A DNA stretch of 45,805 nt, counting the filler, from Sphacelaria rigidula (lineage: Eukaryota): the NCBI GenBank assembly GCA_964200075.2. It is 2 parts of 2 records of this genome, joined end to end, with 100 filler letters (N's around TTAATTAATTAA, not from the genome) between each part and the next. Parts side by side here need not be neighbours in the genome. Positions count along the whole stretch, not along the records: positions 1 to 22,871 come from CAXNAA020000305.1; 1 more part is not named here. One strand, given 5' to 3'. Positions 4,790-45,805 of this stretch are shown piece by piece. A model generated the notes under the pieces. It was given only the letters and a program-made list of their open reading frames with translations. It was not told the DNA's origin and ran no database searches. Numbering within the stretch: the first letter of the stretch is position 1; each line of letters starts with the position of its first letter. Both the position numbers and the translations under genes were made by a program.

Positions 4790-5570
4790 GTGAGAGTCAC
4801 GAGACACGTTGGCGTGGTCGATCCCTACTGTGCAAAAGCGATTGCGATGATCTTCTGAATGCACCACTGATTGGTTAGCATGACGGTGTGCGTATCCGTC
4901 TATTTTAACGTGCAGTGTAGCTTTCAGTTTTGGTGCTTTTGTTTCAAGCTAGTTGTACCGCAGTAGTTGACTGGGAGAATACCTGAATACGATCTAGATG
5001 GTGTGCAAAAGTATGAACAAGTGTCTCCGGGCGGGTGACCTGCTCCCCATTCGCGTGCGCACGGAATACCGTTTCTTTCCCCGGTGTGCCTTTGTGCTTC
5101 GTTTACTCTCAACTGCTGCTCATGTAGCGTGGCGCGCAACGGTGATTTGTGACAAACTCGCTTCGGGTGTTGGCACCCTCCCTTCGGTATGACGTTCGTC
5201 ACTTCGCTACCCTCTCCCGCGAATTTGGGCTCATGCTTACGCAGCGTGTAACAGGCCTCGCACTCGGGGGAGATTCACGACACCTGGTCCCATCACCACT
5301 CCTGGCACTCGACCATGTGTCGTTTATACCTATCTCTATACAGCGATGATCCAATCAGCACTTACTGTGCATGCAGGCGATCGTTGCTACCAGTACCGTA
5401 CGTGCGTGTCGACTAAAAATGCACCCTCTAACTATGTGTGCATGTAGTCATTGAAACTCTCCGCCTCTCCCGCGCCTCCATCGATGGCGTGTGATCACTT
5501 GCCTTACAAACGTAACTCCCCCCACCCCCTCCACCCCGTCCGACCTCACTCGAATCGTGACACGCCGAAG

Positions 5571-5723
5571 ATCGATTGCGACGAGTGCGGAGGGAAGGGA
5601 TTTTTCGTGAGTGATTCGGCACAGCCTAGCAAGTGCGACGTCTGCAACGGTTTCGGGAAGATCGAGTGTCCGGAGTGCGAAGACCGCAGGTACTTTTTAA
5701 CCTTTTTCGACGTCACACCATGA
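5571..5723 (+). CDS. DnaJ-type zinc-finger protein, exon 3 (CxxCxGxG repeats, no J-domain seen; BSD2/LQY1/PSA2-like class)
   Basis: Acceptor aag| at 5570, in phase with exon 2. IDCDECGGKG...CDVCNGFGKIECPEC completes four CxxC pairs. Ends at TGA 5721-5723, or splices at CAG|GTACTT near 5689. Confidence 0.8.
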   Translation: MDCDECGGKGFFVSDSAQPSKCDVCNGFGKIECPECEDRRYFLTFFDVTP

Positions 5724-7989
5724 CCATTCGCCTCAATTTTTGGATCGCGTTGCTCATCCTTTCTTGTTGATCGTTCATTACCCGAGCCTGGTACAGCCTC
5801 CGAGGCGTGCATGTGCTTGTTTGGCTCACAGGCCAATATTTGCTTGAGCTTGCCACAAACAGGGATGCATTCAAAACTGACCAAAGATGAAAACTAGTCG
5901 CCATTTTTCAATCCGTTCCCCATGTGCCCTACCTGCGTCGAACTTGTACGAGAAAAATGCGGTTCCTCTGCAATGCGTGCACGTTTGTGAAAACTATTCT
6001 CGCGTACACGGAATTTTCGTCTCGTCTCACTTTTGTACTTGTGTCACCTGGGTTGATTACGTTCGGTTTACGTTCGGAAGGCACATTCACAATTATTATT
6101 CAAATGGCATTTGCGCGAGAATCGTTCGGAAAATGTATTCACGCGCAGTTCCTGGTCGACGACTAGGGCAGCCCTCGCTGCTGCTGTCCATTGAAATGTA
6201 CCTCTTTTGTGGCCTGTGGGGGTTCTGCGTCTCACGTGTTTGGCAGGGAATGGCAGAGGCAAAACAGGAGCCGAAGGCCACGTCCGTTAAGCCTACCTTC
6301 GGGACGGGGCGACGACGACGACGACGACGAGTTCCCCGTGAACTTTCCATTTTTAGGAGCCCGGTGACCCCAGCCTAGTGCCATCGGCTCCGCTGCGCTT
6401 GGGCCTGCGTTGATTCTGTCTTTACTGTCCGTGCCGCTTTGTTGATCGAAAGTACATGTAGGCCGTAAGAGTCTGTCCACGTTTTTACGTTGCTTTGCAG
6501 CGCTGTTCGTTGTATCCGGATGACTGCAGACGTAAAGTACGGCCCTGTGGAGTGGCCCCGATATGCTTCCTCGCAGCCACTCGAAGGGCTTCGTCGTGAC
6601 GGCTCCTGTGTGACGATGTTCAAGGGGTTTGTACCACCCTCTTTCGTGTATTTTCGTTGTGACCTCGCCTTCTTGTTTTACCGTATCGTTACATGCTTTT
6701 GTTCACCGCCTTCGCTTCGTGTCTCGCCTCAGAGGACAACTACCCACTGGCAGTAATAAATTCGTTGCTATCCCAGTTATCTCAATCCGCCACCCTCCCT
6801 TTTCTTTGTTTCCTTCTCTTCTTGGGTGTTAAGGCGTGCGAATTCCTGTCGCTTGGCTGGGCTTTCATGCCCACTTCATGTGTGCCGCTGAATCTGCGCA
6901 TTTGAGGTTAAGATTTTCCCAATTTATAGACGTCGATTTCAGCCCCGCGACGCTCGGAAACGTGAAGGTATCGGCCAAATACTAAAAATTTGAGGACTTT
7001 TTTGGCTTTCAACATATCCAAGATATTTCATTCCGGCATTAGACAGCACCCTCGTGACTCGGGGAGTGCAGCCATCGGCGAGGCGTTTTAAGCGGATTAG
7101 CCTGCGGGAAGAGTCTGCAGGTGTGCACGAGTTCGAGGGGCGGTGGCGCGCACGTAACTGCTTCGCTTGATGACGAGCGCCAGCAAACGCAGTGTTGGAA
7201 GTCCGGAAAAAGAGAGGTTTATTCGACGTCTTGTAGTTGATGGTCGTTGGCGACCTCGTGACCGATGGACAGCTTAGATTCTCATGGTTTATCAGGTCGA
7301 TGTAGAACTGTATTGTACTTATTTTAGTGACAGCAAGAGGGTGTACGTACATTCATCACACTATCTAGCCGTTGACGATGTGCAAACCACCTCGACTCTA
7401 TGCTGGGAGGTACCGTCTCTCTTTATCTCACGTGTATTTTGCCTTCTCGGTTTGCAGACAGGAGTATTTTGTGGTTGAGATTCCAGACAAGACCCGTGCC
7501 ATGAATGGCAATTGACTGATGCAGCGTTGTGATGTAGTAACACATGGAGTGCAGCAAATTTCTGTGTGACCCAATCACGAAGGCCCACACCGCAAGATGA
7601 CTGCAGAGAGTGCGGCGCGTCCGGTGACACCCGTTCCTTTACGTTTGCCGACATCCTGCGCTTACATCGGACGTATACTCGTAAGTACATGTCTTCATGC
7701 TTCTGAATCGAAAGGGCTCGCAACTTTTGTTCCAGGAACACATGCCCGCCCATGGATTTTTTTTCAGGGGGAGGTGGAGAAGTTTTGTAGCGCCAAACAA
7801 TGTGTTCGTGAGATTGCGAGTAGAGCGTTGATTGAGAGTGGGGTTTTTCATCCGCTTTAACTTGACCAATTTTTCATTCCGTGTGCGATTTTTTTTACCT
7901 GTAACACCGCCATGTACTTTCAGCTACACATCGAAAATTTACTCAGGGATATCAAGGGCTTCGGCGGCAAGCTACTACAGGAAGCATAT

Positions 7990-8110: not shown

Positions 8111-8843
8111 GCTCACATTCCTGTGCTATCGGCCGAGCACTTTCTTGAACCTTTACACCGGAGCAGCAGGCGATCAAGGAAAGGTGCCCGTGTATTTTCG
8201 CCGCTCCCTGTGTTGTACAAGCGCGTAATTTCATGACATCGTCATACAGACTATAATATCCGCCTTGGACCACGTAAGTTTGCGTAAAAAATGGTTGATA
8301 TATATATATACATACATAAATGCCTTCGCGGTGCTGTAGAGTCCAGGTCGTTCTCAGGCGGCGATTTTTTATTTTCATTTCTTGGATATACCTGAGCTCA
8401 ATTGCGATATGACGGATGATAGCGCAATCGCCTTCATAATATCGCCCCCCCCCCTCCCAGCGGTCAACGACTAAGGCAAGCAACAAATGAGTACGTACCC
8501 CCGCCCCTCCAGCTGGCGTTTTCGGGGGAACATGGAGTGGCATGTGCTCGTGAGGATCTGGGGCACGAGCTCTCCTTGTTGATTGTACTACTGTAGTGTG
8601 CACCTGACGTACCTTGATGGGTATGCAGCGCTGCTTCAAATAAATACGTTGTCAGGAGTAGTAAAAAGAAAGACCACCCCGGATCCCGCCACTCCCTGAA
8701 GGGCTGAGAAAAATGATTCAAGCAGCCTTTTCTTCTATGCCGAAAGGATTTTTTGTGAAAGTATGTATGATAGTTTCACGAAAAAAATTATGTACCCCCC
8801 CCCCCCCCCCCCCCCCCCCCCCAACAACAGCCGCAACCGGCAA

Positions 8844-9498: not shown

Positions 9499-10319
9499 TT
9501 AAGGTAGTATTGCAGGAAATAGCACCAGGGTCTCCTGCACACAAGTACGCACAACAACCTGAGTGATGCCGGCGTATTTCCTGATCTTGACGGAGTTTTG
9601 GCTCTTTTAAAGTTTTCGCAGACACTTCAGGCACCGAGTCCATGGGTACTGGTCGTTATAAAATGATTAAACTCAAATCATCTATCTTTTCGTTTTTGTC
9701 CATGATTTATGATTCTCGAGCTACTTTTACCCGACAGTGTTGCGCCCAGTAAAAAATTCTTATTTTTATAGTCTTTTAGACGCCTCCTTGTAAAATGCTG
9801 GATGATGGCAAGTGTCCCGATTTCGCGTGGAGGGTCTGCGCCTACTGTGCATACAGCAGCGGACCAAACAGTATCGCTCTGGCAGAAGACGGGGACGCGA
9901 GGGCGATCGAAGTGTGTTGAAATACAGACAGGCAGTCCCTCTTGCAAGTTTCAACGGTAGCAGTAACGGAAGCAACGAGTAATCGCAACATTCGCATGGC
10001 CGAGGGTGAACACCCCCCCCCCCCGGGGAAACCGCCCCCCGGGGGTTTGGGGGAGAACCCCGCCCGGGTTTCACCATTTGAAACCTGCCCTCCGGTGTTT
10101 AGGGAGAGCACCGCGCTCGTGTTACACCATTAGCAGAGATATGGAGAGCTGTCTCCCCACCTGCAGAAAATAAGCTTTCCATTGCAAAAGAAATTATTGA
10201 AATCCATCCGTGCTGTTAAATAAACGACTCGACTGAAGTTTGAAAAGTGAAAATTTTGCTCCGCACCCGTGCACGTCTGCTCTGGAGTGCCAGATATGGT
10301 GGAAACAGAGCACCTAACT

Positions 10320-10421
10320 TCAGTACGGTACAGTACAGCACTGTACCTGGTATAGTGCAGTAGAGTCCAGTGCAGTGCAGCACAGCACAGCACAGTAGAA
10401 CATGGTGCTGTGTACAGCACT
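10320..10421. repeat. Degenerate pentanucleotide microsatellite (CAGYA/CAGTG)n
   Basis: cagta-cggta-cagta-cagca...cagtg-cagtg-cagca-cagca-cagca-cagta. Confidence 0.7.
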
Positions 10422-10973
10422 GCCATCAAGGGCATGGTGCAGTCCGCCAAAGATAAGGGTAGTTGCTGAAGTGTATATACGTAAATTGCGGTCGGGTCGA
10501 ATCCTGCAAGAATCAAATCATGCGCACTGTGTGCGTGGATAACGTGTAAATCTTTGGGTTGCATCGTCCATCACGCACATCGCTGATGGTGCTCCTGTTG
10601 GCTTCTGCAGCGTATGTTCGGAACCCCCGTCCGGATTCTAACGGCCGTAAACGTTGAGCAACACCTACGGAGTCGACGCAGACATACAAACCTACTTGAT
10701 GAGTTGAACGGTGCTACAGTACCACAATCGAACGCTGCAGCATCAGATACAAGTATCATGTCAAAATCACAGCTCCGCTAGCGTAGGCCGGTACTGTACG
10801 AGTGTTCTTGAGTTCGTACTCTCGGTGCCTTCTCCGGATTACCCCTTGCCAACGCTGCCGAAGGGACCAGGGTGGGCGTGGACGTTGTGATATCTTTCCA
10901 CAACTATGGGAAAGATATTTCTTCGACCATAGGAAAGAAGAAGTGATCGCGCCGAGAATCGACCTCGCACTTC

Positions 10974-11063
10974 TTTTGTTCGTCAGAACAAACTCCATCA
11001 CTGAGCCACTCAGTCAGCGCTGACTGAGTGGCTCGGTGGTGGAGTTCGTTCCGACGAACAAAA
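10974..11063. repeat. Loopless 90-bp palindrome
   Basis: Two 45-bp arms centred at 11018/11019 (...cagtcagc|gctgactg...), 41/45 complementary; the four mismatches are all transitions. Confidence 0.9.
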
Positions 11064-11300
11064 CACACGATGGAAGGCACGCTATGTCAAACGCACTGAT
11101 TCTCAACCCTCCAACCATTCACCCCCCGGTTCATTACCTCCCTTTTGACGGTAGATGTGGAGGATCCCCAAGACTCACTCACGGGGTGCAACGTCTGGAT
11201 GCCTGCTTGGACGTCGGCGGGGGCAGTCCGAATGTTGCATACGACACGAATGTCGATCCCGAGGTAACAGCGCCACGAGTCGCAGGGTGCTGCATGGTTC

Positions 11301-11881
11301 CAAGGTTGTGTTCTGTAGGATACGGTTCTCTGTATACCCGGGGCATTTTCGCGGGCATTTACCGTCCCCGACAGTTCTGTGACTTCTGTAAGGCGTTCAT
11401 ACCGGTACCCGACAGTTGTGTAATCTCTCTAAGACTTTCATACGCTTACCCGATGGTTCTGTGACTTCTGTAAGCCTCCCGTACCGTCATCGGTGGGCGC
11501 CGGTATGCTCTTGATAAGATACCCGTTTGCGGATACCGTATTCTGTGCAACCTTTATACCCTGCCCGACAGTTTCTGTGAGTTCTGTGAGCCTCCCATAC
11601 CCTTACCCGACAGTTCTGTGAGTTTTGTACATAATGTGTACCCGTACCTGAAGCGCGGGTATACTCTTGAAGAGATGAACCCTATTGTCGGCACGATTTT
11701 TCTGTAAGTCTCCCGTACCGTACCCGAAAAGTTCTGCAATTTCTGTAAGATTTTCAAACCGGTACCCGGCATTTTCTTAATTTCTGTGCGACTTTCATAC
11801 CGGTACCCTATATTTCCTCAAGTTCTGCAAAGAGTCTCATACCCTTTAGAACATACCCGCACCCTACAGGACACAACCTCG
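11301..11881. mobile_element. hAT-type MITE with internal 41-42 bp tandem subrepeats
   Basis: TIR caaggttgtgttctgtagg versus cgaggttgtgtcctgtagg; 8-bp TSD CATGGTTC (11293-11300) / CATGATTC (11882-11889); internal cccgacag-anchored units at 11367, 11408, 11564, 11606 and further degenerate copies. Confidence 0.85.
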
Positions 11882-12539
11882 CATGATTCTGCAAGCGCGA
11901 TTGCTCAAAATAGCAGCATCTGACTTCTTGGCTCATGTTTGGGATCATGGTTGTGATTTCTGTCGAAATCAATGGCGCCTACAGTTGTGCTTTTCAGAGC
12001 TTGGTACGAGTATTTGACTCCGACACTCCCAATTCTGAAGCGACGAGACAGCTGACATATTGCATCCATGCACCGATTTATATCATGTCCTCCAGACAGG
12101 TGGTGAAGCTACTGTATCACTCGGGCCTCCATCCGCCCAACTCGTACCACATCCGTTGTTGGGGCTGGATCTCGACGGACAGACTCCGAGTGAGTCAGCC
12201 AGATGGGGCGGGGGAGGAGCGGCGACGCCGCGGACGGCGGCAACTACGGAACGCGGAGGTTTCGACGGCAAAGGTTTCGCAGGGCCGACACAGCGGACAC
12301 ATCTTGCGGTGGTGACAGACGGACGAGGGAGCAGGGCTGCGTCGGTGCCGACGACGGTGCGAAGGGTGGGTGTTGGCACCCGCGCGGCGGTTCGGAAGAT
12401 TCCACCATCATATATTGCGGTACTGACAGGCAGCGGGGAAATAGCGGCGGCAGCGGACCAGGGTCTGCGTGGTGCGGCGCTTCCCCAGCCTTCCAGTCTT
12501 TGCTGTGGTGGCATAATGGCAGTGGGCCTGATCAGAGTA

Positions 12540-13764
12540 TCCACAGCGCAGCTGGACCCAAGATAAGTGAGGGTGAGATGGCTACAGTCCACTGCATCAT
12601 CCTTTCCGAGTTGTTGTTCAAGAAGCACTAGAAGAAGTGGCTCGTAACTTCGATTGATACTGATCAGTGGATTATTGTGTCGCTAGCAATATCCTCCGGG
12701 TATATCACGCCGCAGGGCTCCGACGCAGCGCAAGTCACTGTTGAACGATTGTGAGCGGTGGCCCCCGGTACATCCTCGAGGACAGGGTGTACAGCTCCAC
12801 CGAGAATCTGAGGGATGGGAGTGAGAGCGCTTGGCCGCCCGCCGGACAGTATACGTGGTTGACGCCATCTATGAAGGTAGCATTATTTGTGTTGACCTAC
12901 CTTTAGGCTGGATGTGACTTCTTACCATATGTGTCAAGGATTCCTTTCCTCAAGCTTTGGGATTTCGTGCTGAAGGCCCTGCGCACGTCGAATCTGTTTA
13001 CAGCACCGATATTCACGGAAGAGGACGGCATCCTGAGAGTGGACATCGATGAGGGCGTGAAGCTGCCGGCCGCCATGTTTTTTTCCAGGGACGAAAACGC
13101 TTCTGCGCAAATCGCCACGGATCCGGGGCTTCTCTTCGCCACGGGGGGGGGGTGGGACTTGGGATCGTATGTCAACAAGATCTACCCGTGTGTCACCACA
13201 GTATATGGGCATATGCCTCCCCGGTGCTGCCCAGACTTGGACGCCTGTCGGAAGTACGTGAGCAAGTCTGACGCGGTATTCGACCACTGGGGAGGGAGGG
13301 TTCAGAAGAAGATGCTCACGGTGGACTTCAACGGCCGCGGTTGGGTTGTGGGATCCCAGAAGACTCATCACAAGCGGGGCATAAAACTGGAGAGCAGAGA
13401 GGCAGAGGCGCTCACGCGGGACAACATCGTTATTTATTTATCAAGCTGCACGTATGATGATGGGTCCGGGAACGTGCGGACCCTGAGGTGCTTATGTAAC
13501 CCGGCAAAGGCGCCACAAAGAGACCACCGCTGCAAAAAATGTAGGTGTCTGGGGAACTGCACGCTGAGCTGCGGTTGCCAGGGTCGCTGCTTGCTACCCC
13601 CGCCGTCCTCTGGAGCAACCGAGGAGACTTCCAGTGGTGATGTGACAGTAGAATTGGCGATGCACGTGAACGATCTATTTCTGCCAGGAGCGGATCCACG
13701 GCGGACCGTGGAAGGGCCGAGGCGAGTAGAGCGACCAACGCGTCGAGGGCAGCAGTCAGCGTGA
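12540..13764 (+). pseudogene. Decayed FEN1/XPG(PIN)-like nuclease plus C-terminal 9-Cys CXC domain; Academ-type DNA transposon fragment
   Basis: Motifs in order: EGEM (12569-12580), SIDTD (12650-12664), GCDFLP (12910-12927), VFDHW...GRGW, and CLC...CKKCRC...CTLSCGCQGRC (13489-13590). Broken by TAG at 12629 and 12904 and a frameshift near 12748. No introns seen. Confidence 0.7.
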
Positions 13765-16700
13765 GGCACGGCGATGAGCCGCGCCGGTTTGGCGGCGGGA
13801 GTATGGTCGGAGAGGGATGGGGTCTAGGAATATCCCCGAATAGTCGTTATTATCACGACGGTTGACGTGAAGACTACAACAGCGTCGGGTCAAGAAGTGC
13901 AGCCGGCATCTGGATTGGATATTCCGATTTGGAGTGTAGCGGGTCGGAGACAGATGACCCGGCAACGGAGGCAGAGAATAACTACTGTATGAACATGAAA
14001 TTTTCATGTTTTGATTGCGCCTGATGGAAAAATTGTAAATATTATTTTGGTTTGTAAAGTGGACTTTTGCATTTGCGTTATTCAAGATTGTCTCCTCCAG
14101 GAGGTGGTCACAAAGCTCGCCTCGTGTACATAGCAATGGTGTTCTTTGCATGGTGCAGTGCGCCCTTTGGGGCACAAGTTTATTGAGGTTGGTGTGCTGA
14201 CGCCCTTGGGCGAATCTCCGGTCGTGCGTGAGTGCAGGCATTAATGAACATCGGACGAGTTTATGTCAAAGATGACTGTCGGTCCAACTCTGAACCAAAC
14301 CACGGTCTCCAAGTTTGTCTTTTGTTACTCCTACATGCGTCCATTATTGCACAGTCATCGGCTCTAGTCTGTGGCTGGAATGAACGGTGGTGTGACATCG
14401 AGCGAACCGCCGGCAATCGTTTCTGTGACGAGTTGTGATGAACGCTGGGGGGAGGAAAGTCCGAACGCGTTCTCCAATGCTTCCTCTTCAACAAGCTGAA
14501 CCACTCTGCAGCGCAGCGGATGGTCGATGTGACCACCTTGCCTCCCATTCGTACCACAGTTCCCCTTCGGCAGTACCGCCCCCTTTTGATGCGGAGGAGT
14601 AACGGTATCGCAGACGGTGGAAGCTATCGGCGCAGTGCAGGTGGCGACATTACTTGAGAAGCTCTAATCTAGGCGAGGCTCGTTTTTTATTCTTATCGCC
14701 GAGCCAAGTGTATTTCATTGAGCAATTTTCTCATTTTCCGCACACGTGCAATCAATGATTAATCTCTTGAAGGCCAATTTCTTATTTCTCGCGGACTCGT
14801 AAAAAATAATGGAATTCTTGAAAACAAACGTTTATTTTTGCCTTCAAATGTTAAGTAATATATGAAATATTGTACAATAATTGTAGTACTGTACAAGAGT
14901 ATGTACTGACTACTGTACCGTATTCGGCGGCGGGGGAGGTAAAGAGGGGTGGGGCATCCTTGCGTGGAGGGGCTCATAGGTCTGCCACCAGTTTCTTATT
15001 TCCCAAGGCTGCAGTGTCGATGACAGATTTCTCATTCGCCGGGCCTCTTGAATCTTTCGATTTCTTATCCTTATTTTCGCCTTGATCTGAGCAAAATTTG
15101 TCATTATCGACTTCTTAAAACCTGAAAAATATGAGCCTCGATTTTTTAACTGGTGACTTCTGGCGCAGCTCGGAACTCCCGTCCTTGCATATTTCAGTGT
15201 CGCCTCACAGTTCACGCTTGTTGCAATCTGAAACTAGTTATTATGCCCTGTATGACAGTACTCTTCCCGACAGCTTGCGGTGTGGTCTGGGTGGGGAGGG
15301 CGGGGGGCTATCGACGCATCATTCGGGCGACGATGTCCGCGATTTGAAAGCACCTGAACGCAGAGCAATTGCCGCCTGCTCATTTTGGATACCACCGACG
15401 ATTTGAAGCGCTTTTACACCGCATTCCACATGTTTTAACACCCCGCACCTAGATGGCAAGATCTCGACACATACTGGAGGTGCAGAGACAAATCAAATTG
15501 CTCTGTGTAGACAAAATACATATCTATTAACGGGTCTATGTTCCAGCGGCGCCGGTCCCTGCTGTCAAATAAAACTTCGAGGTGATACGCATATTTTGCC
15601 CTATACCGACGGTAGGTTGATACGATTTTGGGCTTGAACGACGGCCAATAGATAGTTGTGCCTGCCTGTAAAGTTTCGGTCTACATATATCCGTGCAGCG
15701 TCAGTAATCGACGATCGCGTGTCTGAGGGGCCTGTTGGAAAATGCCTTTTTTGATTGTACAAATAGTAACAACTTTGTTTAGGGCTATCCGTCGCTAGCT
15801 TGTGCGCTGTACTGGATATAATTGCGTCAAGCTTCGTTCAGGACATAGCTGCAGATATACACTACAGCTATGTGTCAAAATCATTACCGTTTCGTTCTCT
15901 GTTCACTTCTTTGATCCCGTGGAGTCCTCATCTTCGGGGTGGTGGTGAAGAACGTGACACTAAACTGGGCGTAACACTGCTGAGATTTCTGTGTTGGCGC
16001 AGACACGTGCGCTACTCAAGTCCCATGTACCGCAGAGAGATCAAGAAGGTTCACTTGTGTTCGTGTTTTTTCATGTCGAGGTTCGTTCTGGGCTTCATTT
16101 CCCTCCGCCAGCTGGCTAAAGCCCAGAACAGTACACAGTATATCGATGATATTTTCAAAAGCACCGTTTCACCATGATGAATCAAGCTTACTGTACACCT
16201 CTGAAAGGGGCGGTGCTCTAGCACACGAGATGACACCCCCCCCCCCTTCCCCTCAAACATTTGAAAAGACGGCGGAAGCAACAGGGATTCCGTCACGGCG
16301 ACAGAACGTCGTCACGAAGCCAGCCTCGCTGCGATGGGGGACGAGGACACAGCCGCTCGGCGATATGGAAAGTTATACCTTGCGATCCGCAGTTCGAGGT
16401 TCAAGCCCACCTGCGGAGGAGGATCCCACATGAAACACAACGCAACGCCATCATGCAATCACCTGGTCGGCATACACAAGAGAGATATTGTACATATTTT
16501 CGTAAGCTGTCCTATGTTGGGTGTATATAGTGCTTGGTCATCGTCACCATTGCACCTTTAGGTAATTTCTGGCGCGGCACCGACAGTCACTGTATCTTTT
16601 ACCGCAAGATGTCCCAACCCTGACCAGGCGGTGGGCATCACGTGAGTATTGCCTGTACGGCACCGATCAACACGACGAGCTATCAAGAACAAAAGCACGA

Positions 16701-16807
16701 CGGCCAACAATAGGGAGCCAGTAGCATTGATATATGCAAGTCGCTCTACCTTTATGTTTTTTTTTTTTTCGTTGCTTTCCCATGTTTTTCCTTGCTATTA
16801 TTGATGA

Positions 16808-17277
16808 GGCCAACTCTAATGGCAGCAATCCAAAATTCCTGTTCAAAACTGCCTTTTTGGCCCTTCTCCGTCGATTTATGCCTGAAAAGAGAGCTAGGCG
16901 GATGTTGACGCCTTGGAATGACTTGCTCTACTCGTTGAGGTCATTCTAGGGCACCTTCGCATTTCCCGCTGGCCGCACTTTTGTTTCTAGCCAAATGAAG
17001 CGCGGCACAGATTTTCAGTAAAAAGCAGCCAGGTGATCAAAATTTCCCCGTTTTCTAATCACTTGACCATTTTTTGTTGGAAATCCGTGTTTGTCCAAAA
17101 ATGAAGGTGCGGCCAGCGGGAAATGCAAGGTTGCCCTGGAACGGCCTCAATGAGGAGAGCAAGTCATTCTAAGGCGTCAACATCCGCCCAGCCCTCTTTT
17201 CAGGCGTAAATCGACGGAGAAGGGCCAAAAAGGCAGTTTTGAGCAGGAATTTTGAACGGCTCCCATTAGAGTGGGTC
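16808..17277. mobile_element. PIF/Harbinger (Tourist-like) fold-back MITE, 470 bp
   Basis: About 190-bp inverted arms (ggccaactctaatgg.../...ccattagagtgggtc); 3-bp TSD TGA at 16805-16807 and 17278-17280. Confidence 0.85.
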
Positions 17278-17898
17278 TGAGGCTGAAAATGTCGTGTCAA
17301 AATTTCGGCGCCCACTTCTCGAATTACCCACAGCCGGGCCTAGAAACATTAAAAAATCACTGTCGCTGTGTCAGCGGGCCCCGCTCGTAGAATGGACAGT
17401 GGGTCGAGGGCGTTTTGTTTTATACTTGTACTACGGTTCCCGTTCTCATCACTAAACTATTATACTGCGCTTTCTCCAGGTGACTCCTTGATTGTTTCAC
17501 TGGTATTCCGCTGCTTGGTTTTTCTCCTCCTTCCAAGTTTATATTGTGTGATAGTGCATTTCTGTCAGTGTGCGGAACAGAATACCGCCTACGACTCGCT
17601 ACTGCCGTGAGATACCATCGCCAGAGAAAATATGTTGGTACGAGTGGCTGCTCTCGAATCTTCCTATCGTTCGATTGCGGATCTGAATGGAAGGGCGAAT
17701 ATGACGAGAAATAGTTCTGTTTTTGGTCCTCTCGCGACGAGCAACAACGAGCGTCAGCAGCCTGTGCAGAGCACACCGACACCGCCAACATTGGTTGCGC
17801 TGGGCGTATCACTGTACTATACTGTAAAATAGCAGAAAATGAGGTTCCGATGGGTCGATGCTCTGCTTGAGGAAGGCAAAACACGAGTGCCGAACACC

Positions 17899-18192: not shown

Positions 18193-18517
18193 GTGAGTTT
18201 TGCTGCTCCGCGTGTTGTCTTGTGTTGCAAGGGGCGATCTATAGGACGGGGGAAAGACGAATAGGTGATACAGATAGAGCTTGTTGGTGCTGGAATATAG
18301 ATAGTCCAAATAGACAGTCGTTCCGCATGAGGCAACACACCGCGCTAGCTTCAACTTTTTTCTTGTTTTGCCTACTTTCACTTGCACCCAATCCAAGCGA
18401 ATTCAAGCCGCCTTGTGTTCTTCAAACTGTTGGATCGTGACTGGACGGTACACAACGGGCACTGTTGTTTCTAGTACCAGTACTTTTTTTTTCTCAAATA
18501 TGTTTGTTCTGTCTTCA

Positions 18518-18996
18518 GGCCGCTCCTTATAACGGACAAAACTAAAACTCTGGAAAAGTGACTTTTTGAAGCTTTTACGTCGTTTTACGCCCGAAAAGAG
18601 AGCTAGGTCTGACACCTAGGAATGACTTGTTCTACTAGTTGAGGCGGTTCCAGGACATCTCCCCGTTTTCCGGTGGCCCCAGTTTTCATTTTGGCCAAAC
18701 AAGAATTTCTGTTCAAGTACCGTAAAAAACAGTCGAATGTAGGAAAAATCGCGCCTTTCCTCTGGACTTGACTGCTTTTTATCGTTCTTGGACAAACATC
18801 CTTGTTTGGCCAAAATGAAACCTGCGGCCACCGGAAAACGGAAAAATGTCCTGGATTCGCCTCAACTATAGTAGTAGAGCAAGTCATTCCAAGGTACCGA
18901 ACTGTGCCTAGCTCTCATGTGGAGCGTAAAACAACGTGAAAGCTTTAAAAATGCACATTGCAACATTTATATTTTTGTCTGTTATAAGGAGCGACC
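18518..18996. mobile_element. PIF/Harbinger (Tourist-like) fold-back MITE, 479 bp, related to 16808-17277
   Basis: About 200-bp inverted arms (ggccgctccttataac.../...gttataaggagcgacc); flanks TCA / TTA; shares gaaaagagagctagg, ggaatgacttg and gttgagg blocks with the 16.8-kb element. Confidence 0.85.
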
Positions 18997-19399
18997 TTAG
19001 TCCGTATACCTCTTCCCCTTCCTCGGGACGAATCCGGCGTTTCAAGGGATCAACCGATATCTCCCTTAGTAAGTACACCCCTTACATTTTGTTATCACGG
19101 ATTGATTCCGCTCTCCCGCACCGACCGCGTCGACTGTCGCAACAAAGTCACCCAAATATATATAGTGCTTTTTACGTCCTTATGCCTTCTAGGACGGGAA
19201 TAAGAAATGAGAGAATATCGAGGGGAAAAAAAAAGGCAAATTACGTTTTGTAGACGCATATTTTCGGGAATAGAACCCGCGCATCCCCTGCCGTACTGGT
19301 TGGGTCAGAGTGAAAACCCAAAATTTATTCCCCCGTCATTTCTCACGCGAGTTTGTGGAGCCCCTGCAACTGGCACACGTGTGCTACGAGCTATTGCCA

Positions 19400-22871: not shown

Positions 22872-22971
22872 NNNNNNNNNNNNNNNNNNNNNNNNNNNNN
22901 NNNNNNNNNNNNNNNTTAATTAATTAANNNNNNNNNNNNNNNNNNNNNNNNNNNNNNNNNNNNNNNNNNNN
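22872..22971. other. Synthetic scaffold-joining linker N44-TTAATTAATTAA-N44
   Basis: Exactly 100 bp and symmetric, with a six-frame-stop 12-mer at 22916-22927. Confidence 0.95.
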
Positions 22972-31593: not shown

Positions 31594-31854
31594 TATTACC
31601 AGTGAAATCCAGAGTACAGTATGAGTGATTTATGCGATGAGCCAAACATGATTCTTGACAATCGTTGAGGGGTGTGTATTGGATGCCTGTACAAAATAAG
31701 ATTCTCAAAATTAAGCATTTGGCATTTGCACCTCTTCGAAAAATAAGGATGAGGATTCAAGCATTTCTGCTGGAATCGGAGAGAAAATAAGACCCGAGCC
31801 TCGCTCAAAACAAGAGTTTCCTAACATCTGTCGTGCCCTGTATAATGACATAAA

Positions 31855-32230
31855 TGTGGAGATCGCCATTTTTTGGGCATGTGCGGAGAGATTTCCTTTT
31901 ATGACGTGTAACCTTAACCTAGTGAACGGCTGTTGCAGGGGTAAGTTCGCAGGAGCCCCGAAACTTCCATATCTGTACAGCCGGATCTGGGACCCCAAGG
32001 TAACAGGGATCTTCCCAGCGAGCTGCTGGCTATCCCTGGGGATGGCTCTTGACCAAGACTCTCAGACTTCGTCATCGGGCTAACTCGCTCGCTCTCGTCG
32101 AGCTTTCCCGAGTGATCCACTTCGCCTCAACCCCACGACTTACGGTCAATCCTTGACTACATAATCCGAGGGAAATCATTCGCCACCTTCGACGGTTTCC
32201 ACCGTCACCGGGAGTCTCACGACTTCCACA
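31855..32230 (+). repeat. 5' LTR
   Basis: Matches 39423-39798 except C31948/T39516 (by-eye comparison, consistent with the ORF track). Confidence 0.97.
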
Positions 32231-32231
32231 T

Positions 32232-32244
32232 TGGCGAACACCAG
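32232..32244 (+). promoter_or_regulatory. Putative primer-binding site (TGGCGAACACCAG)
   Basis: TGG begins 1 nt after the 5' LTR, complementary to tRNA CCA. Priming tRNA not identified. Confidence 0.7.
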
Positions 32245-32517
32245 TTCAGACAAGTGCGCGCAACCCTGAGGGAAAAAAACGCTCACAGGTCGGCAACGTT
32301 CCCAGCGACCGGGGCAACCGCTTTTCTCTCCTCCGCGAGGAGGATGAAAGCAGCTCCGGCCTCGGCGACACGGATCCCGAAAACGTGGGCAGGGCCCCCT
32401 CATCGAGAGCCGTCGCGTTTTCCGACCCAGTACCGGGACACATCAAAGAGGCAGCTCTCAAGGTAGCCTTGAAAACTATGGAACTTTGACAAGGGGACGG
32501 ACCCTCCTCAGTGGGCT

Positions 32518-34028
32518 TTGCGAGCGCTGGGGATGCTGGACTCCCCTCAAGATGTGATCCAGCAAGCACACCAGGTGAACAATGGGGTGGCAGTAGAACA
32601 GCCAGAGTTAGAGGTAGAAGTAGTGAGGGGTAGTTCGGTACATCTACGTCGCGGTGATCATGCACCTAATGACACGACCCTGCCAAGCTCTCGTAGTGTG
32701 CATGCACCAACCACGCCCCCTCGATTGTCCCGGGCGACTAGTAATGTAGTAGATCAAGTCACTGCACCAAATCATTCGCCCGGCACAAACTCTCAAACCT
32801 CGCTGACTTCCGCCCAACTTCACCCGAGCAACGTAGGTTACGCATCCCCTACGAACCAACAGGTGATCAGTAGTCCTCAGGCATTACCTCACGTGCCTGG
32901 CGGTAATTTTTCACCCCACGGGGCACCAAATTTGACCCCCTCGCATAAAAACCAAAATCGATCAAGTGCTATCGACAATATAGTACACACTCCTCGATTC
33001 ACGCTCAAACAAAACGATCTCGGTTCTAACATGGTTTTGAGAGGACTACCAACTGAAGACATTCCAACGATAATGCGACGGTACCGGTCCCGAGTTGAAA
33101 TTAACTCGCAGGATCAATGCACGCGAGAGGAAATCGATGGCCGATGCATCAAGCATTTACAGCTCTTACTGAGGGACACAGCTCTCGACGCGTACACGGA
33201 TCTTGTAACCGGTACCTTAGAATGGCGGACAGAGGCGAATCTCGAAGCCCTTCGGGCACAAGGAGGTGAAGTATCTACCAGGGCCCCCGCATCATGGGAC
33301 GAGTGGGTCGATGCTTATACGAATTTATACTCTCCACCTAATCGCATTGCAATCCTCGCCCGGGCTGTAGCGGAGCTCAATTTTAAGGACCACCACACTG
33401 TAGACTCCTACGCGTTAGAAGTGTCCGAAGCACACTCTCGTTTTTACGCAGAAGCCGCACGAGTCACGCCACATGGTAGGGACCCAGTTAGCTTCGCACG
33501 GGAAGCCAGCCAGACGACTGCTTTTGAAGCAGGATTGCCGCCACATATCAGGGTTGAAACCGTACGCGAAGATCCAACTCATAGCTTTCAGGTTGCAAGA
33601 GCCCGCGCCAAAAAAAGCACGAAACCAACAATTTGCGCGGGACTCAGCCAGAAATTTCCAATCCCTCTCCGACCCACGTTTCATCTCTCGCCATGCACAA
33701 CTCCTCTCAGCTCGCGGAAACAGTCGCGGATCAAGGGCAGCAAATTGAAAAATTGTTGAGAGAGAAGCGGTGGCCTGGCGGAGACCGCGGAAGATCGAAG
33801 AAACGTTCTTCACACCCCGGGGACAAAATGGGCCCATCACCTTCTCCCAGTGAGACCGCGAAACGTAGTCGGTCAGAGAGTAGAGGGAGTAGACAATATG
33901 ATAGTCAACCAAGGAAGAAAAGCGAGCGCTGCACATACAAACCATGCAGGTTCAAACACAATCACTCGATAGAGGACTGTCAACTGGCAAAGAAGCATAG
34001 AGAGCAGCTGCTAGCTTTAGGTGTTTGA
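32518..34028 (+). pseudogene. gag (frameshifted at the A-run near 33610) with atypical zinc knuckle
   Basis: ORFs 32518..33759 and 33633..34028; capsid-like LLLRDTALDAY...WDEWVDAY...TVDSYA...FEAGLP; CTYKPCRFKHNHSIEDC at 33930-33980. Confidence 0.8.
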
Positions 34029-34094
34029 TGGTGCCCGGAGCAGGGGCCCTCGCCCAGCGAAGGGACACATGTACAAGCAAAAAGAGCAACTACC

Positions 34095-35472
34095 GTGCGG
34101 TCTGTCGGAGAAGTTTTCAAGGTAGCATGCGTGACGCAGAAGTACAGAAAATCGAGGGAAAATACTGTGCACCACGAAATGGGTGCCGACCCTCTGGTGG
34201 GAGATAAAAAGGGCAAGAAACGTGTGCGGTTTGCTAGCCAAGGCGTAGCTTCTTCTGTGAGGTCATGTAAGAGAGTACATGTGGAAGGGGTTACAGTTGC
34301 AAAGGCTAGAACAAAAGAGCAAGTAGGGAATACAACAGGTCAAGATCAGATGTTACGTGGGAAGCATCGCCACCTGAAAATTGCGCCCCAAGCTGCTTTT
34401 GTAACCAAGACGTCTCGGAAAAATAATGAAAAGCACAGATCCAAATTTTTGCCTCCAGGCTCGGCAGAATTCGAGCCTTTCTTCATGTCTTCGTTGGCCC
34501 GCTACCCTAGGAAGCCGGCAACGTCACGACCTGCATCAGCAAGAGTGCAGGTTCCCGCCAGAGTCAACGGAATGGAGGTTCCGGCCATGACCATTGATAC
34601 TGCTTCGAATCTTCCCATAGTCAGTCTCAAGTTCATTCGTGCACATCCTACTTTGAGAGACCAGGACATTCAATCTAAGGAGTGCTGACGGTTCACCAAC
34701 CACGATAAAGGGATTCATTCGCTTTGACCTCACGCTGGGTGACATAACCTTGCCCGTCGAAGCATTTGTCCTCGGGAATCTCGGGCCAGACCTCATGCTG
34801 ATAGAGAATTCGGTGATGAGCGCATTTGACGGGGTTCTCGATTGGCAGGCAGAAACCCTGGCGATTCGTAGTCCAGCAGTTCGCCTTACAGCTACTCATC
34901 GAAGAAAAGACAGAACAGTTCATCCGAAGTTTTCAGAATATGATCATTGCTCTGTCATACGGGTAGCATCGGCTGAAAATGTCCCAGTGTATCTCTCAAA
35001 GAGATGCTCCGTCCCGCCGCGAAGTGAGATCGCTCTTCTGGTCGAAACAAATGAGCCGCCAACATTTACGACTGAAGCAGTCATTGAGCCAAGAATTGCA
35101 ACGAGTGAAGACCTCCAATCCAACAAAGTACCGGATGCTTTTAGCCGCCTCGTTGTAGCACGCACAGCCTGTACCTGGTCAGCGATCAACAAAACAGCTA
35201 TGGTACCAGTAGCAAACCCGTCGAATAGACACGTCCAACTCCCAAGAAATTTACTTTTGGGACACATCACACAAGTCGAAAAAAATGACCCGACGGAAAA
35301 CGTCAGTGCAATTTCACAAGCTGAGCGGCACAATACTGACGCCCGAGAAGAACTTACAACAGCGCTCCAGAATGTATTTAAAGATAGCACTTTTTCTGAA
35401 ATTCAGAAGAGCCAAGTGCTCGACCTATGCACCAAATACAGGTGCGTCTTCTCACTGTCACAACGAGAATAG
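34095..35472 (+). pseudogene. Aspartic protease and PR-RT linker
   Basis: TIDTASNLPIVS active-site motif; frameshift near 34680; continues ADGSPTTIKG...LGPDLMLI. Confidence 0.85.
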
Positions 35473-36790
35473 GTTGTTGTACAATTGGGGAAGCAACTTT
35501 TCCCCTTGCCCCGGGCACCAAGCCCGTTGATCGGGCCCCGTACAGAACCAACCCCAGAATTCAAGAAGTCATCGACAACTGTGTACAGGAGATGGGAAAA
35601 GGCGGAATAATCGAACAGAGACCCAGCCCATGGGGCTCGGCAGTGACGATCGTAGCTAAACATGATGGTACCGCCCGATTTTTTGTTGACTACAGATCCA
35701 CGCTCAATAAAAGTCTTGTGCGCAAGTCATGGCCAATGCCTAATTTGGAAAGTCATGTAGATACGGTGGCAGGCGCCAAATTTATCTCTGTCTTTGATGT
35801 ACAGAGCGCGTTCCATGAGATCCCAATAGCGGAGGAGGAGAAAGAAAAAACGGCCTTTGTTACAGAGAAAGGTAAGTGGGTGTTCAACCGGCTACCGTTC
35901 GGCCTAGCACTTCCCTGTTCATTTTCTCGCGAATAATGGCTCTTACTTTCTCACACTTTGGACCCAGGAGCGGTCTGTCGGTGTACATGGATGATTTGAT
36001 CGCCTGCTCCTCCACATGGGAAAGTTACCTCACTCTACTGGAAGACATGTTCAAAGCACTGAAAAAAGCAGGTCTTACCCTAAAGCCCTCTAAAGCACAG
36101 TTTGGTCCAAAGGAGGTCAAGTACCTCGGCTACACTTTGTCCGCTGACGGGATCAAAATTGGGGAAGACCGCGTAAAGGCCATCTTAGGTTTACCTACAC
36201 CAACGAACATCAAACAATTACGTTCAGTGTTAGGGACGATTAATTTCATGAGAAAGTTTATTCCGAATCTCGCACAGGTAATTGCCCCGTTGGCAGATCT
36301 AACGAAAGAAGAGGCAGCCAAGGAAGTAGCAAAACGCTGGAATCACGAACACGATGCAGCTTTTGCCGAAGTAAAAAGACTTCTCATCACCGCTCCTGTC
36401 CTTCACTTCCCAGACTTCTCAAAGGAGTTCACCATTCAAGTTGACGCGTCTGGAGAGGGTGCTGGGTCGTTGCTCACCCAAGATAAAGGGGGCAAAACTG
36501 CAACCGTAGCGTATTTCAGTCAGCGTTTCAATCATGCTCAGCGGCACTACTCTGCTACACTAAAAACATGTTATGCAATTGTATTAACTATACAGCACTG
36601 AAGGCCCTTTTTATGGGGAAAACATTTCACGTGTGTGACAGACCATGCAGCACTACGGTACCTCTATTCCGTGCAAGACACCAGCAATATTTTGACAAGA
36701 TGGGCGATAGCTTTACAGTCCTTTGACTTCACTGTGAGGCACAAACGGGGAAAATTAAATATACTTCAGAACACTCTGTCAAGGCTCTTT
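35473..36790 (+). pseudogene. Reverse transcriptase and RNase H
   Basis: SPWGSAVTIVAKHDG..RFFVDYR, DVQSAFHEI, KTAF, RLPFGL, YMDD, VKYLG, VDASG, TDHAAL, RWAIALQSFDF. Frameshifts near 35470 and 35910; TGA at 36599 in place of Trp. Confidence 0.95.
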
Positions 36791-37042
36791 CGGTTTGAAG
36801 AAGACCAGAATAATGAGGTCAAATCTCTGCTCGCGCCAATTTGTCGGAACGTCCCAGAGGATCCCAAATTGCACGCGAAGAAAGCGCACCAACCGTTTCA
36901 AATTTCAGCGGATGAATTGGATAATCTCAAACCATTACAGAGCGACAGAGAGCTGTTTACCGTCAATTCTCCCCACACAAGCGCTACACATATTTTCACG
37001 TCTGTAAACAAAAACAAGTTGCGAATCGAACAGGCAAAATAA

Positions 37043-38598
37043 TATGGCTCTTATATTCAATATCTGACAGACGACGTCGCACCGTTACCGGAAAAGGAGA
37101 CACTGACTTCTATGTCCTACTTTTTGCTTCGTGACGGTATTTTGTTCAGGTCATACTTGCCAGGAAACCTTCGAAAAAAGGCACCGACCGCGATAGACTA
37201 GTGCTACCAGAAGCTCTGGTGAATTTTGTTCTGCACTCACATCACGATCATGTGTTGTCTGGAGGTCACCTTGGATCCAAACCGACGTATGAAAAGATTA
37301 AGAACAAATATTATTGGCCGACATTGAGCCAAGATGTGCGAAAGTGGTGTCAACGTTGCCACTCATGTCAGAGAAGAAAGACGGCCCATAACCGTCCGAA
37401 ATTACCTGTAGGCCACGTACCTGTGAACAGACCTTTCGAGCGGATATCGATAGATCTTGTCGAATACAAGACGATTTCAAATTCGTCAGCCGGTGTGCCG
37501 TGTAAGTATGTAATGCCTGTGATGGATCATCTGACACGATATGCACTGTTTATTCCCATACCGAACAAATCCGCCAATGCGGTGGCAACAATGTTGGTAG
37601 ACCGTGTCTTCACGACATTTGCGATACCCGAAAAAATTCGTTCTGATCGCGGTAAAGAGTTCCAGAACCGGGTAATACACCAGTTGCAGTTGATCCTGAA
37701 GTTTAACAAAACACGCACGACACCATTCCGCCCTCAAGGCAACTCTGTTTCAGAACGCGTACACTCGAATTTTCACGCTATGTTAGCCATGCATAGTACG
37801 GTCGAACAAGAAAGCTGGGCGTCTATGCTACCCTTCGTGCAAATGGCGGATAATACATCATTCAACACCTCAGTGCAAGAAACACCCTATTTTCTCATGT
37901 TCGGACGTCAACCAAAATTACCTGTCGACATTATTTTGGGCATTTCCGAAAAAGGGCACGCTGTGGATGCTGAACAATACGCGAAAGAGACAAAAGAAAA
38001 CTTGCAGATAGCTTTTGAAATTGCAAGACGCAACTTGAAAAAACGAGCAGACAAACAAAAGGCAAGTAATGATAAGCTCAAGCCATGTCCTGTCTTTAAA
38101 CCTGGCCAACAAGTGCTACTCTTCAGGCCACACCAAGACACAGACGGTCCTGATCCAAAGTTGGTATTACCATGGCGGGGGCCATACAAGGTCGTCAAAC
38201 AAATTTCTCCGGTTGTCTATGAGGTCAAGATAAGCGAAGATGCGAAAGAGACGTCAGTATACCTCGCCCACCTTAAGCAATACTATCCACGAGAACGACC
38301 CCCAGCTCCCGAGTTTGACCGACTCGACGAGTATTTCCTACTAGGCAAAAAACTACCCCTGCCCCAACTTGACCGTCCGGAATCAACGAACCCAAGAATT
38401 GAACGTTACATCGTTGACAAGGTGGTGGGCCACAAACGAGGTCCGGGAAGAAAGAGCCATCAAAATTACAAGTACCGTCTCCGTCTTCAAGGCTACGGGC
38501 CGTCAGCAGACTTCGAGTACCGAGCGGACGAGAAACGACAATGTCAAGAACTCATCAACGCATGTCGAATAGAACACAAGTTCGATAATACGCGCTGA
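37043..38598 (+). pseudogene. Integrase (HHCC, DDE, GPY/F) with C-terminal chromodomain
   Basis: HDHVLSGGHLG...CQRCHSC; SIDL, SDRGKEF, GNSVSER; WRGPYKV; YIVDKVVGHK...YRLRLQGYGPSAD. Upstream TAA at 37040 and a frameshift near 37180. Confidence 0.95.
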
Positions 38599-38858
38599 TT
38601 TGATTCGCCATCTCAAAATTCCAAAAAAAAAGGAGAGAGAAAAATATAAGGCGAGCTGAAAAAAAAAAATCGTGTCATACTTACACGACCAACAGAATGT
38701 CTGAAAATAAATAAATGAAACGCGTATCAAATCAGTTCAAGGTAAAGTTAAACGCGCTATCTTGACTCGCCATGTCATAAATCCGGAGAAAAGAGACGAA
38801 ATTATAAGGCGAGCTGGAAAACATAATCGTGCATTACCTACACGACAAACAATAATAT
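38590..38858 (+). repeat. Diverged direct repeat (about 110 bp x2) in the Gypsy 3' UTR
   Basis: acgcgct...tcgccat...tataaggcgagctg...aatcgtg...tacacgac at about 38590-38700 and 38752-38858. Confidence 0.75.
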
Positions 38859-39409
38859 CGGGACAGATCTCACGATCGAAAACAGATCGACGGTGAAGAG
38901 AGACTTGGTCTTTGAATCAAGCTCTTATCAGCATAATAAGGGGAACTTGCTGACAAGGATTGCCGTAAAAGCTCTTTCTACTCCGAGCAAAATGCTCCGA
39001 GAAAAGAAAAGCACATTTTTACCACCGCTGTATCCGATTTCAACCTTTCCCTGGTTACCTAATATATCACGCGGCCACCATAGCTCCACTCCTCTGCAAG
39101 TCATGAGCGGACCTTATTGGTACAAACCGTCGGATACGGTAATCTGTATAGATCGTTCAGCTGATCACTGAACGAAACTTGCACAAAATTTTAAGGAAAA
39201 CAATTTTTTGTCCAATTTTTTCTTCACACGAGCCTGTAGGAGAACGTCGATAAAGTTTATTGGTTAGTGTCTCTCAACACCCAGTGTGACGCGTTCAACT
39301 CCAGGCTACTATAAAGGTATCTCAGAAGCACATACAAATTAGACCCCCAAAAATTATCACTCTCCCGAATGCCTGCCACGAGCCTTCACAGATGGCCTCG
39401 CGGCGCATC

Positions 39410-39422
39410 AAAGGGGGGGTGA
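39410..39422 (+). promoter_or_regulatory. Polypurine tract
   Basis: aaagggggggtga immediately before the 3' LTR. Confidence 0.85.
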
Positions 39423-39798
39423 TGTGGAGATCGCCATTTTTTGGGCATGTGCGGAGAGATTTCCTTTTATGACGTGTAACCTTAACCTAGTGAACGGCTG
39501 TTGCAGGGGTAAGTTTGCAGGAGCCCCGAAACTTCCATATCTGTACAGCCGGATCTGGGACCCCAAGGTAACAGGGATCTTCCCAGCGAGCTGCTGGCTA
39601 TCCCTGGGGATGGCTCTTGACCAAGACTCTCAGACTTCGTCATCGGGCTAACTCGCTCGCTCTCGTCGAGCTTTCCCGAGTGATCCACTTCGCCTCAACC
39701 CCACGACTTACGGTCAATCCTTGACTACATAATCCGAGGGAAATCATTCGCCACCTTCGACGGTTTCCACCGTCACCGGGAGTCTCACGACTTCCACA
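39423..39798 (+). repeat. 3' LTR
   Basis: 376 bp, TG...CA, followed by TAAA. Confidence 0.97.
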
Positions 39799-41737: not shown

Positions 41738-42674
41738 CTAATAAACATTGTTTTATTTATTTCTGTTAATTTTGTGAAAAGAAATGGATTAATAAACAAT
41801 GGCAAAGGCCGAAAAGTCTGGTGGGCTTCGCGGGGTTTGCATATTGGCTTCTGCTCCTTAGTATATATTTTGTACACATCATTTCACTTTTTTCACCACT
41901 TTTGCCGAGTTTCCTCAGGCGGCAAGGCATCTTATCACGCGCTTCCTTTTGCAATGCACGAAGAAGGTGCAGCGGTACATTACCTTTCAGGTTTGGGTGT
42001 CATCTGATAGCTGTGGCGCGTGTTCTGGCCATTGAAAGTCGCCCACACTGGCACTTTTTCGCGGGGCGTCGATCCCGGACCACAAAAGCCTCTTCAAGAT
42101 GATGGAAAACTCCAAACAGGAACCTAAACAACAAAAGCCTGTTCATGGCGAGGCATTTCTTTGCGTTCTCGTCGATTCGGGAGCACGAAGACAGCGGTTA
42201 TGCAGCAAATGTCACGAGAACATGAAAGCAAAGCAGTTGAAAACAATTGAAAATTGCCTTCGCCTTAGTCACCAGCAAAAACAAGACCGTGTAAGGAGCC
42301 GTTGGCGAGTTGAACAAGGCACACACGTGAGCAAACGTCCTCACTGTGGGTCAGCTGTGCTCGACAAGCGCAGGGGGGTGACGAAATCCCTGTGATCATG
42401 CAACCCGTAACAGAGAGTACCCTCAAAGGATGCACCGGTGAAGTACCGGCGCAGGAATGTCCTTGTGACAGGGATGACAGAGATGTCCTTGTGACAAGGC
42501 TGCATCCCTGCACAAGTACTTCACAGAGGGGACCTAAAGAAATGTACGTAAACAATGGCTGGTACTATGGAGATGCCCCCAACCCTAACGCTCACCCTAA
42601 CACTAACATCGACCAAGGCATACCGAGAACTCTCGGGCAAGGGGGGTGCAGTTTCTTAGGTAAAACGTGCGTTA

Positions 42675-42743
42675 CGAGAGCTCAAATAGACGCCTTTCGA
42701 GAGCTCAAATCGACGCATTTCGAGAGCTCAGGTTGACGCCTTT
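42675..42743. repeat. Tandem 23-bp repeat x3
   Basis: cgagagctcaaatagacgccttt / cgagagctcaaatcgacgcattt / cgagagctcaggttgacgccttt. Confidence 0.85.
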
Positions 42744-43716: not shown

Positions 43717-43770
43717 TCGACTTGCGTCATCCCCGGGAGGCCCGTATTAACCTCCCGAAGGGGAACCTTG
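43717..43770 (+). mobile_element. 54-bp Helitron-like module (second copy at 45743-45796)
   Basis: Starts TC, hairpin cgggagg-N10-cctcccg, ends CTTG; sits between A and T in an AT tract; no TSD. Confidence 0.45.
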
Positions 43771-43806
43771 TATAATATATAGTATATAGTGTATATATAG
43801 AATATT

Positions 43807-44153
43807 TCGAACTCACGAGCGTCAAGCATAATTTGTAACGAGGCGTCCACGAGCTTTAGTGCTGGTTTTAGTGTGCAAGTTCCTCCGCACCCGCCCCGAG
43901 AGATGACTGTTCGGGCCAATGCCAATTCTAGGGGTCCGGTAAGCGGATTCGTACTTTACTTTGTCCGGGGGTACACATGCGTTTGCGACCGTTCCAACGG
44001 ACGCGCGATCGCGGTGGTCCTGCAATGTTTCCGGCGAGCATGGACATTTCGAGAGAGGGTCTATTCTCACGAGGGCTTGGCAAGGCAAGAATACCGAGAC
44101 CCTCGGAAAAGACGGACGGGACCGGGGCACAGCCCTGGGTCCCGTACGGCTTG
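43807..44153 (+). mobile_element. Non-autonomous Helitron-like element
   Basis: Starts TC; GC-rich hairpin acgggaccggggc-aca-gccctgggtcccgt near 44116-44145, followed by CTTG (44150-44153) and CTAG (44158-44161); AT-rich flanks. Confidence 0.5.
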
Positions 44154-45796: not shown

Positions 45797-45805
45797 TATA
45801 TATTA

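Follow-up and report, generated by a model that had tools for sequence, protein, structure and literature searches.

A probable AcademX-type DNA transposon, persisting as a dead deletion derivative, in the brown alga Sphacelaria rigidula

The window, that is the whole stretch of Sphacelaria rigidula DNA analysed (45,805 nucleotides, filler included), consists of two parts, and the element described here lies in the one taken from contig CAXNAA020000305.1 (C305; window positions 1–22871). Positions 22872–22971 are N filler, and the sequence beyond 22871 is not on contig C305. The features of the element are collected in Table 1. Elsewhere in the window are an LTR retrotransposon at 31854–39721, with RT, RNase H and integrase spread over several ORFs and with identical 300-bp repeats which mark it as a young insertion, two related MITE-like inverted-repeat elements (16807–17278 and 18517–18997; a relative lies in L031 at 5312–5800), and a 37-bp inverted repeat (3–39 and 8466–8502) whose two copies, separated by 8.4 kb, could be the termini of a further DNA transposon. 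Several dispersed and inverted repeats, tandem or nested, occupy 41860–45800.

Table 1. Features of the element and its borders (window coordinates)
Feature	Position	Strand	Remarks
Whole non-autonomous element, very probably AcademX-type, subfamily A	9735..15979	+	6,245 bp; sister-copy similarity begins at 9735 and ends at ~15979; flanks vary between copies
Left target-site duplication (TSD)	9731..9734	+	CCGA; 3/4 match with 15980–15983
Left terminal inverted repeat (TIR)	9735..9750	+	16 bp, starts CAGTG; 15/16 complementary to right end
Insertion absent from C4632	10803..11060		carries hairpin 10974–11063
Sole surviving copy of the ~450-bp direct terminal repeat of a nested 1.8-kb element	11296..11882		absent from C4632
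Deletion junction	12189..12191	+	window 12189 = C4632:1778; 12191 = C4632:8804
C-terminal half of FEN/EXO1/XRN-fold nuclease (EGE, DTD, GCDFLP)	12494..13488	+	broken by TAG 12629, frameshift ~12749, TAG 12904
9-cysteine CXC (CRC/tesmin-like) finger	13489..13590	+	C-x-C-x11-C-x2-C-x-C-x3-C-x3-C-x-C-x3-C
Low-complexity and acidic protein tail	13591..13985	+	further frame change ~13640
Right terminal inverted repeat	15964..15979	-	16 bp; pairs with left end
Right target-site duplication	15980..15983	+	CTGA; 3/4 match with left CCGA

Six-frame translation, with read-through in which TAG was rendered as X, recovered all the motifs named by an earlier, sequence-only reading of this DNA: EGEM (12569–12580), WLVTSIDTD (12638–12664, after the TAG at 12629) and, past a change of frame at about 12748–12750 and the TAG at 12904, GCDFLP (12910–12927), followed by VFDHW...GRGW. 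The two stops, the frameshift near 12748, the nuclease motifs and the 9-Cys finger are real. Open-frame copies such as L050 (700 amino acids) hold the same set of motifs in a single frame. Since at least 157 nuclease matches exist in the alga's own genome (tblastn; 244 Mb, 27,214 contigs), the assembly of motifs is far beyond chance. Just the C-terminal half of the nuclease is retained in the window copy. The remnant does not end at 13764, where the gene had been closed, since the frame change at ~13640 moves the acidic tail (~13898–13972) into another frame, in which it matches the tails of open-frame copies. At each of eight of the finger's nine positions, 80% or more of the aligned rows have Cys, and the 9-Cys pattern recurs in all six other family proteins examined, one of which has an extra Cys pair. 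PF03638 (TCR) occurs in 36% of the members of the Atlas look-alikes of the CXC part, and the finger probably binds DNA.

The nuclease was modelled from an intact relative (110 sequences; pLDDT 71.5, low solely in the insert and the ends). The model aligned with EXO1 (Z=15.7, rmsd 3.8, 270 aligned), Xrn1 (Z=15.2, rmsd 4.8, 359 aligned), FEN1 (Z=12.4), XPG (12.3) and GEN1 (12.2); among 48,161 chains, the 17 with Z≥8 were all FEN-family 5' nucleases, and the next row stood at Z=6.0. Foldseek ranked XRN1/2 first (best XRN1 E-value=1.7e-3), with no PDB match at E≤0.001, Pfam gave no match to the nuclease-CXC part, and profile searches of PDB sequences gave chance matches only. To judge from the model, this is a FEN-superfamily 5' nuclease. 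The FEN-family fold of what had been called a FEN1/XPG-type nuclease is thus upheld, but EXO1 and XRN1 resemble the model at least as closely as XPG does, and 'XPG-like' should therefore read FEN-superfamily 5' nuclease.

An end-pattern search of the own genome gave 84 right and 25 left ends, with none in reversed controls. TSDs were tallied in the ten copies with both ends in one contig, a count that omits L069, where the left and right ends are degenerate, an additional right end in L046, which is the host copy's, and C22017, whose left terminus is altered. Six of the ten have a 4-bp duplication, perfect in C747, C953, C7186 and C10191 and with one mismatch (3/4) in the window copy and C1503; two have 5 bp (C3094 perfect, C9159 at 4/5), and in C2566 and C3422 the duplication is absent. 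The inverted ends and the TSD of 3–4 bp that had been anticipated were therefore both found. A duplication of 9–10 bp, the AcademH hallmark, was seen in none of the ten. Despite the CAGTG termini, a Mariner-Tc1 (Sagan type) identity was rejected, as a fixed TA was not found at the flanks of 67 family ends. An AGACGC-like short word stands near position 44 at left ends and at 52–53 at some right ends. The notion of unequal ends one helical turn apart was likewise dropped, since in 25 x 29 pairings of ends the offsets of the best matches were scattered, without a peak at 10. The right flank of the window copy (15980–16155) is 80% like the sequence to the left of the C953 copy (L036:2971–3145), and the remaining flanks differ; the shared flank points to two insertions beside the same other repeat.

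Comparison with the transposase-bearing relative C4632 revealed that about 7.0 kb is missing at 12189/12191, comprising the N-terminal Cys/His region, the DDE transposase and the first half of the nuclease. The sequence-only reading had taken the remnant for the 3' part of an Academ-like element; Academ-like it is, but the TIRs, the TSD and the C4632 comparison make it a whole two-ended element with an internal deletion rather than a loose relic. Six other copies have the same junction, and other subfamilies have other junctions. Sister copies are 85.7–95.0% identical over the nuclease region, and core subfamily-A copies deviate by 2.8–4.5% from their majority sequence. The frameshift is present in 17/17 subfamily-A copies versus 0/13 others, which indicates that the remnant was dead before the subfamily spread and that it spread in trans; TAG 12629 is found in 11 of the 17 and TAG 12904 is private to the window copy. 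That subfamily A was copied many times though dead implies that its ends, together with an enzyme provided from elsewhere, were enough. The 7-kb internal deletion created the subfamily, which afterwards acquired the frameshift and two insertions while copying continued in trans. The hairpin within the insertion at 10803–11060 is loopless, with 45-nt arms that are 91% complementary, and its host insertion is present in most subfamily-A copies. The nested 1.8-kb element is LTR/TRIM-like (L046:2934–4736); sister copies keep both of its terminal repeats, which are 86% alike, one repeat is left in the window and in L045, and related sequence occurs at L124:2109–3440.

At least 91 transposase matches were found in the own genome, and in many copies the transposase, the first and second halves of the nuclease and the CXC finger follow one another on one strand. 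The DDE transposase upstream of the nuclease, which the sequence-only reading had proposed to look for, is thus present in relatives, and it is DUF6589-like. Autonomous-type relatives specify one protein of about 2,000 amino acids with a Cys/His-rich N-terminus, DDE core, nuclease, CXC finger and acidic tail. The core motifs are of DDE type (DNCD...GDEET...GDWH...LDERQE, with D/D/H/E motifs in P0184). DUF6589, which we take to be a marker of the Academ transposase, matched an own-genome copy in Pfam (E-value=1.6e-7; 30.9 bits, the cut-off being 27) and homologues with E-values down to 4.7e-11, most scores lying below the cut-off (above it in 1/9 proteins of one scan and 3/7 homologues of another). 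Neither of the papers found under the term DUF6589 concerns this link. The transposase model was poor (pLDDT 54.5), its best match, to the P-element transposase, being weak (Z=6.1, rmsd 5.6, 238 aligned), and Foldseek gave no match to it at E≤0.001. Transposase and nuclease reside in single proteins of 1,802 amino acids in Nemacystus and of 2,027 and 2,070 in Ectocarpus sp. CCAP 1310/34, the last identical under two accessions. No copy recovered was both autonomous and two-ended, and Pfam revealed no helicase family in the proteins scanned, among which there was no complete autonomous copy. In B-type transposases (L071:3673–6123, L052:1337–3301) the DDE core is interrupted by an insert of ~280 amino acids that weakly matches the EsV-1-7 motif (E-value=0.018 in L071, 0.2 in L052); either an intron or a captured domain could account for it.

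The gene had been called intronless, which does not hold for the family: in relative L063 two GT-AG introns lie upstream, and the gene there has at least three exons. Contigs from three of four runs of one study, which we call RNA-like because they skip GT-AG introns (that they are RNA is a guess), skip 644 and 424 nt and join the exons; in the fourth run, which reads across the two introns, both joints are missing. The reading frame continues through the three exons without a stop for 1,633 codons, truncated where the contig ends. Because the spliced contigs reach from the first acidic motif to GCDFLP, they join DDE core and nuclease; they differ by ~1% from L063, and hence derive from a sister copy. 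A distant family (L072:3733–5394) is apparently without the second intron, the match being continuous across the site. The right end of the more distant L063 family likewise starts CAGTGTTGCGCC, which makes cross-mobilisation plausible.

The homologues with a named source are those of Sphacelaria, Ectocarpus, Scytosiphon, Pylaiella, Nemacystus and Ascophyllum; three brown-algal orders are represented, and a profile search retrieved 526 representatives at E≤0.001. The database protein identical to one sister copy is that of Sphacelaria rigidula. Ectocarpus siliculosus CBJ28733.1 and the 2,027–2,070-residue Ectocarpus sp. CCAP 1310/34 proteins belong to the family. Fuller copies, which the sequence-only reading had thought to look for in brown algae, thus exist: the Nemacystus and Ectocarpus proteins of 1,802–2,070 residues carry all parts. 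In its accessible parts, the curated Ectocarpus catalogue of 2025 (PMC12477816), which includes Repbase 29.02 families, lists DDE superfamilies without Academ, the name not being found in the text, Table 1 and five supplements; nor does it occur in what is accessible of the brown-algal genomics preprint 10.1101/2024.02.19.579948. The portions seen of PMC4455052, PMC5751038, PMC3627910, PMC10294476, PMC10799480, PMC12973397 and 10.1101/2021.09.26.461848 treat Academ in fungi or animals, or give the name only. In the open literature, outside Repbase/Dfam and subscription papers, no report of Academ from brown algae was found. The lineage that the sequence-only reading thought possibly undescribed would belong to AcademX, which is already known, and would extend its host range.

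The half-nuclease and finger retained in many deletion derivatives could be imagined as a selected product, a repressor or helper, for which the P-element KP is a precedent. At least eight different deletion junctions retain the 3' part, one derivative has the 700-residue open frame (L050), and dN/dS is 0.48 among non-autonomous B copies. The copies were, however, found with the nuclease-CXC region itself as the query, and L109, found by its ends alone, has lost the nuclease; the B copies come from several parents, so that their ratio includes earlier selection, and subfamily A spread carrying the shared frameshift. The private changes of subfamily A number 141, 155 and 174 at codon positions 1, 2 and 3, and selection on its half-nuclease was rejected, dN/dS being 0.66 against 0.71–0.86 in control frames (transitions uncorrected), which is near neutral. 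Among transposase-bearing copies dN/dS is 0.20, against 1.3–1.4 in shifted frames. We regard a selected product as highly improbable.

The window copy is very probably a dead, two-ended, non-autonomous cut-and-paste DNA transposon of AcademX type from a brown alga, the family being assigned to AcademX on described features such as domain order and TSD length. The Academ superfamily and its AcademX lineage are reportedly treated by Kapitonov & Jurka in 2010 and Kojima in 2020. AcademX, with hosts among animals, fungi and a red alga, has the domain order XPG-type nuclease then C-terminal Cys finger. According to the accessible part of PMC10045372, AcademX makes 3–4-bp TSDs and encodes a nuclease, AcademH makes 9–10-bp TSDs and has a helicase, and TSD length is linked to the accessory enzyme. 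A separate DDE lineage, related to Academ and outside AcademX, would form its own clade with 4–5-bp duplications and an XRN-like extension. That sequence searches name solely brown-algal homologues would suit it, as would the mostly sub-threshold DUF6589 scores, the 5-bp duplications in two of the ten two-ended copies and the alignment of XRN1/2 over ~360 residues of the nuclease model as against 235–270 for EXO1 or XPG; but distant relatives escape word-based searches, the order of the domains and a TSD that is most often 4 bp fit AcademX, and in the Atlas both halves lie near animal clusters (DUF6589 at 0.95, TCR/CXC at 0.93–0.94; leads rather than alignments). Such a lineage appears distinctly unlikely. 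The viral nuclease that the sequence-only reading kept as its alternative, here one of giant-virus origin left by viral integration, is scarcely credible and found no support. Among viral proteins, the best fold matches were to XRN-like proteins of giant viruses (E-value=5e-5), and some transposases have the weak EsV-1-7 match (E 0.018–0.2), yet those fold matches share 6–14% identity, and IMG/VR contigs and phage records gave no match. A viral origin is already contradicted by the dispersed copies with their inverted ends and TSDs, by the spliceosomal introns and by the fusion to a transposase.

Sequence comparison indicates that the AcademX-type family moves by its ends, with target duplication and spread in trans, and that relatives have one spliced two-nuclease gene. 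The DDE core would bind the CAGTG ends, nick the transferred strand and join it to the target, with a strand-transfer stagger of mostly 4 bp, and the fused 5' nuclease would cut or trim the non-transferred strand or a 5' flap. In Tn7 the labour is divided between TnsA and TnsB, and by analogy it would be divided in a similar way here. For the nuclease, processing of the non-transferred strand or 5' flap is the role we somewhat favour; processing in target or gap repair is a less likely one, and another role, for example on RNA, is improbable.

At four of 38 right ends (L046:8896, L078:539, L098:3027, L095:920) the adjoining DNA is right subterminal sequence of the family itself, each time at roughly one site ~265 bp in from the end, which on these small numbers is a possible self-insertion hot spot. 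At L094:2829, L129:230 and L130:158 a right end is followed within ~10–25 bp by another copy's left end, as head-to-tail pairs. The mixture of 4- and 5-bp duplications is a lead, again on small numbers. An old, intron-bearing and still transcribed brown-algal Academ lineage, with XRN-like nuclease extension, 4- and 5-bp duplications and self-site preference, is a doubtful reading; were it true, a self-targeting two-nuclease transposon would exist in Ectocarpus, where the role of the second nuclease could be tested.

There is nothing unusual about the window copy itself, a dead derivative. The assignment would extend Academ, a little-studied DDE superfamily, to the stramenopiles, a new host supergroup, and exposes an annotation gap, the accessible parts of the curated Ectocarpus catalogue being without Academ despite CBJ28733.1 and the CCAP 1310/34 proteins. 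The spliced, apparently open-framed relative is a natural substrate for biochemistry.

The family nuclease shares its fold and acidic motifs (D, D, EGE, DTD, GCD) with FEN1, EXO1, XPG, GEN1 and XRN (PDB 5uzv, 3pie, 6tnz, 6tus), but at 8–16% identity, and unlike them it forms one protein with a transposase and a CXC finger and is not specified by a single-copy host gene. AcademX has the same DDE-type transposase and nuclease in one protein, the Cys finger, TIRs and a mostly 4-bp duplication; the S. rigidula family differs in its stramenopile host, in two introns in at least one family, in a nuclease split by a low-complexity insert of 30–300 amino acids and in some 5-bp duplications, and the window copy, a product of internal deletion, has lost the transposase. 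AcademH presumably shares the DUF6589-like DDE core. It has a helicase and 9–10-bp TSDs (PMC10045372, accessible part), whereas the S. rigidula family has a nuclease and 4(–5)-bp TSDs. Ectocarpus Sagan-1 and TcMar-1, of Mariner-Tc1 (PMC12477816, accessible part), have the same CAGTG...CACTG termini and a spliced gene; they duplicate TA, whereas in the S. rigidula family the duplications are 4 bp long and vary in sequence, and the nuclease-CXC fusion is present.
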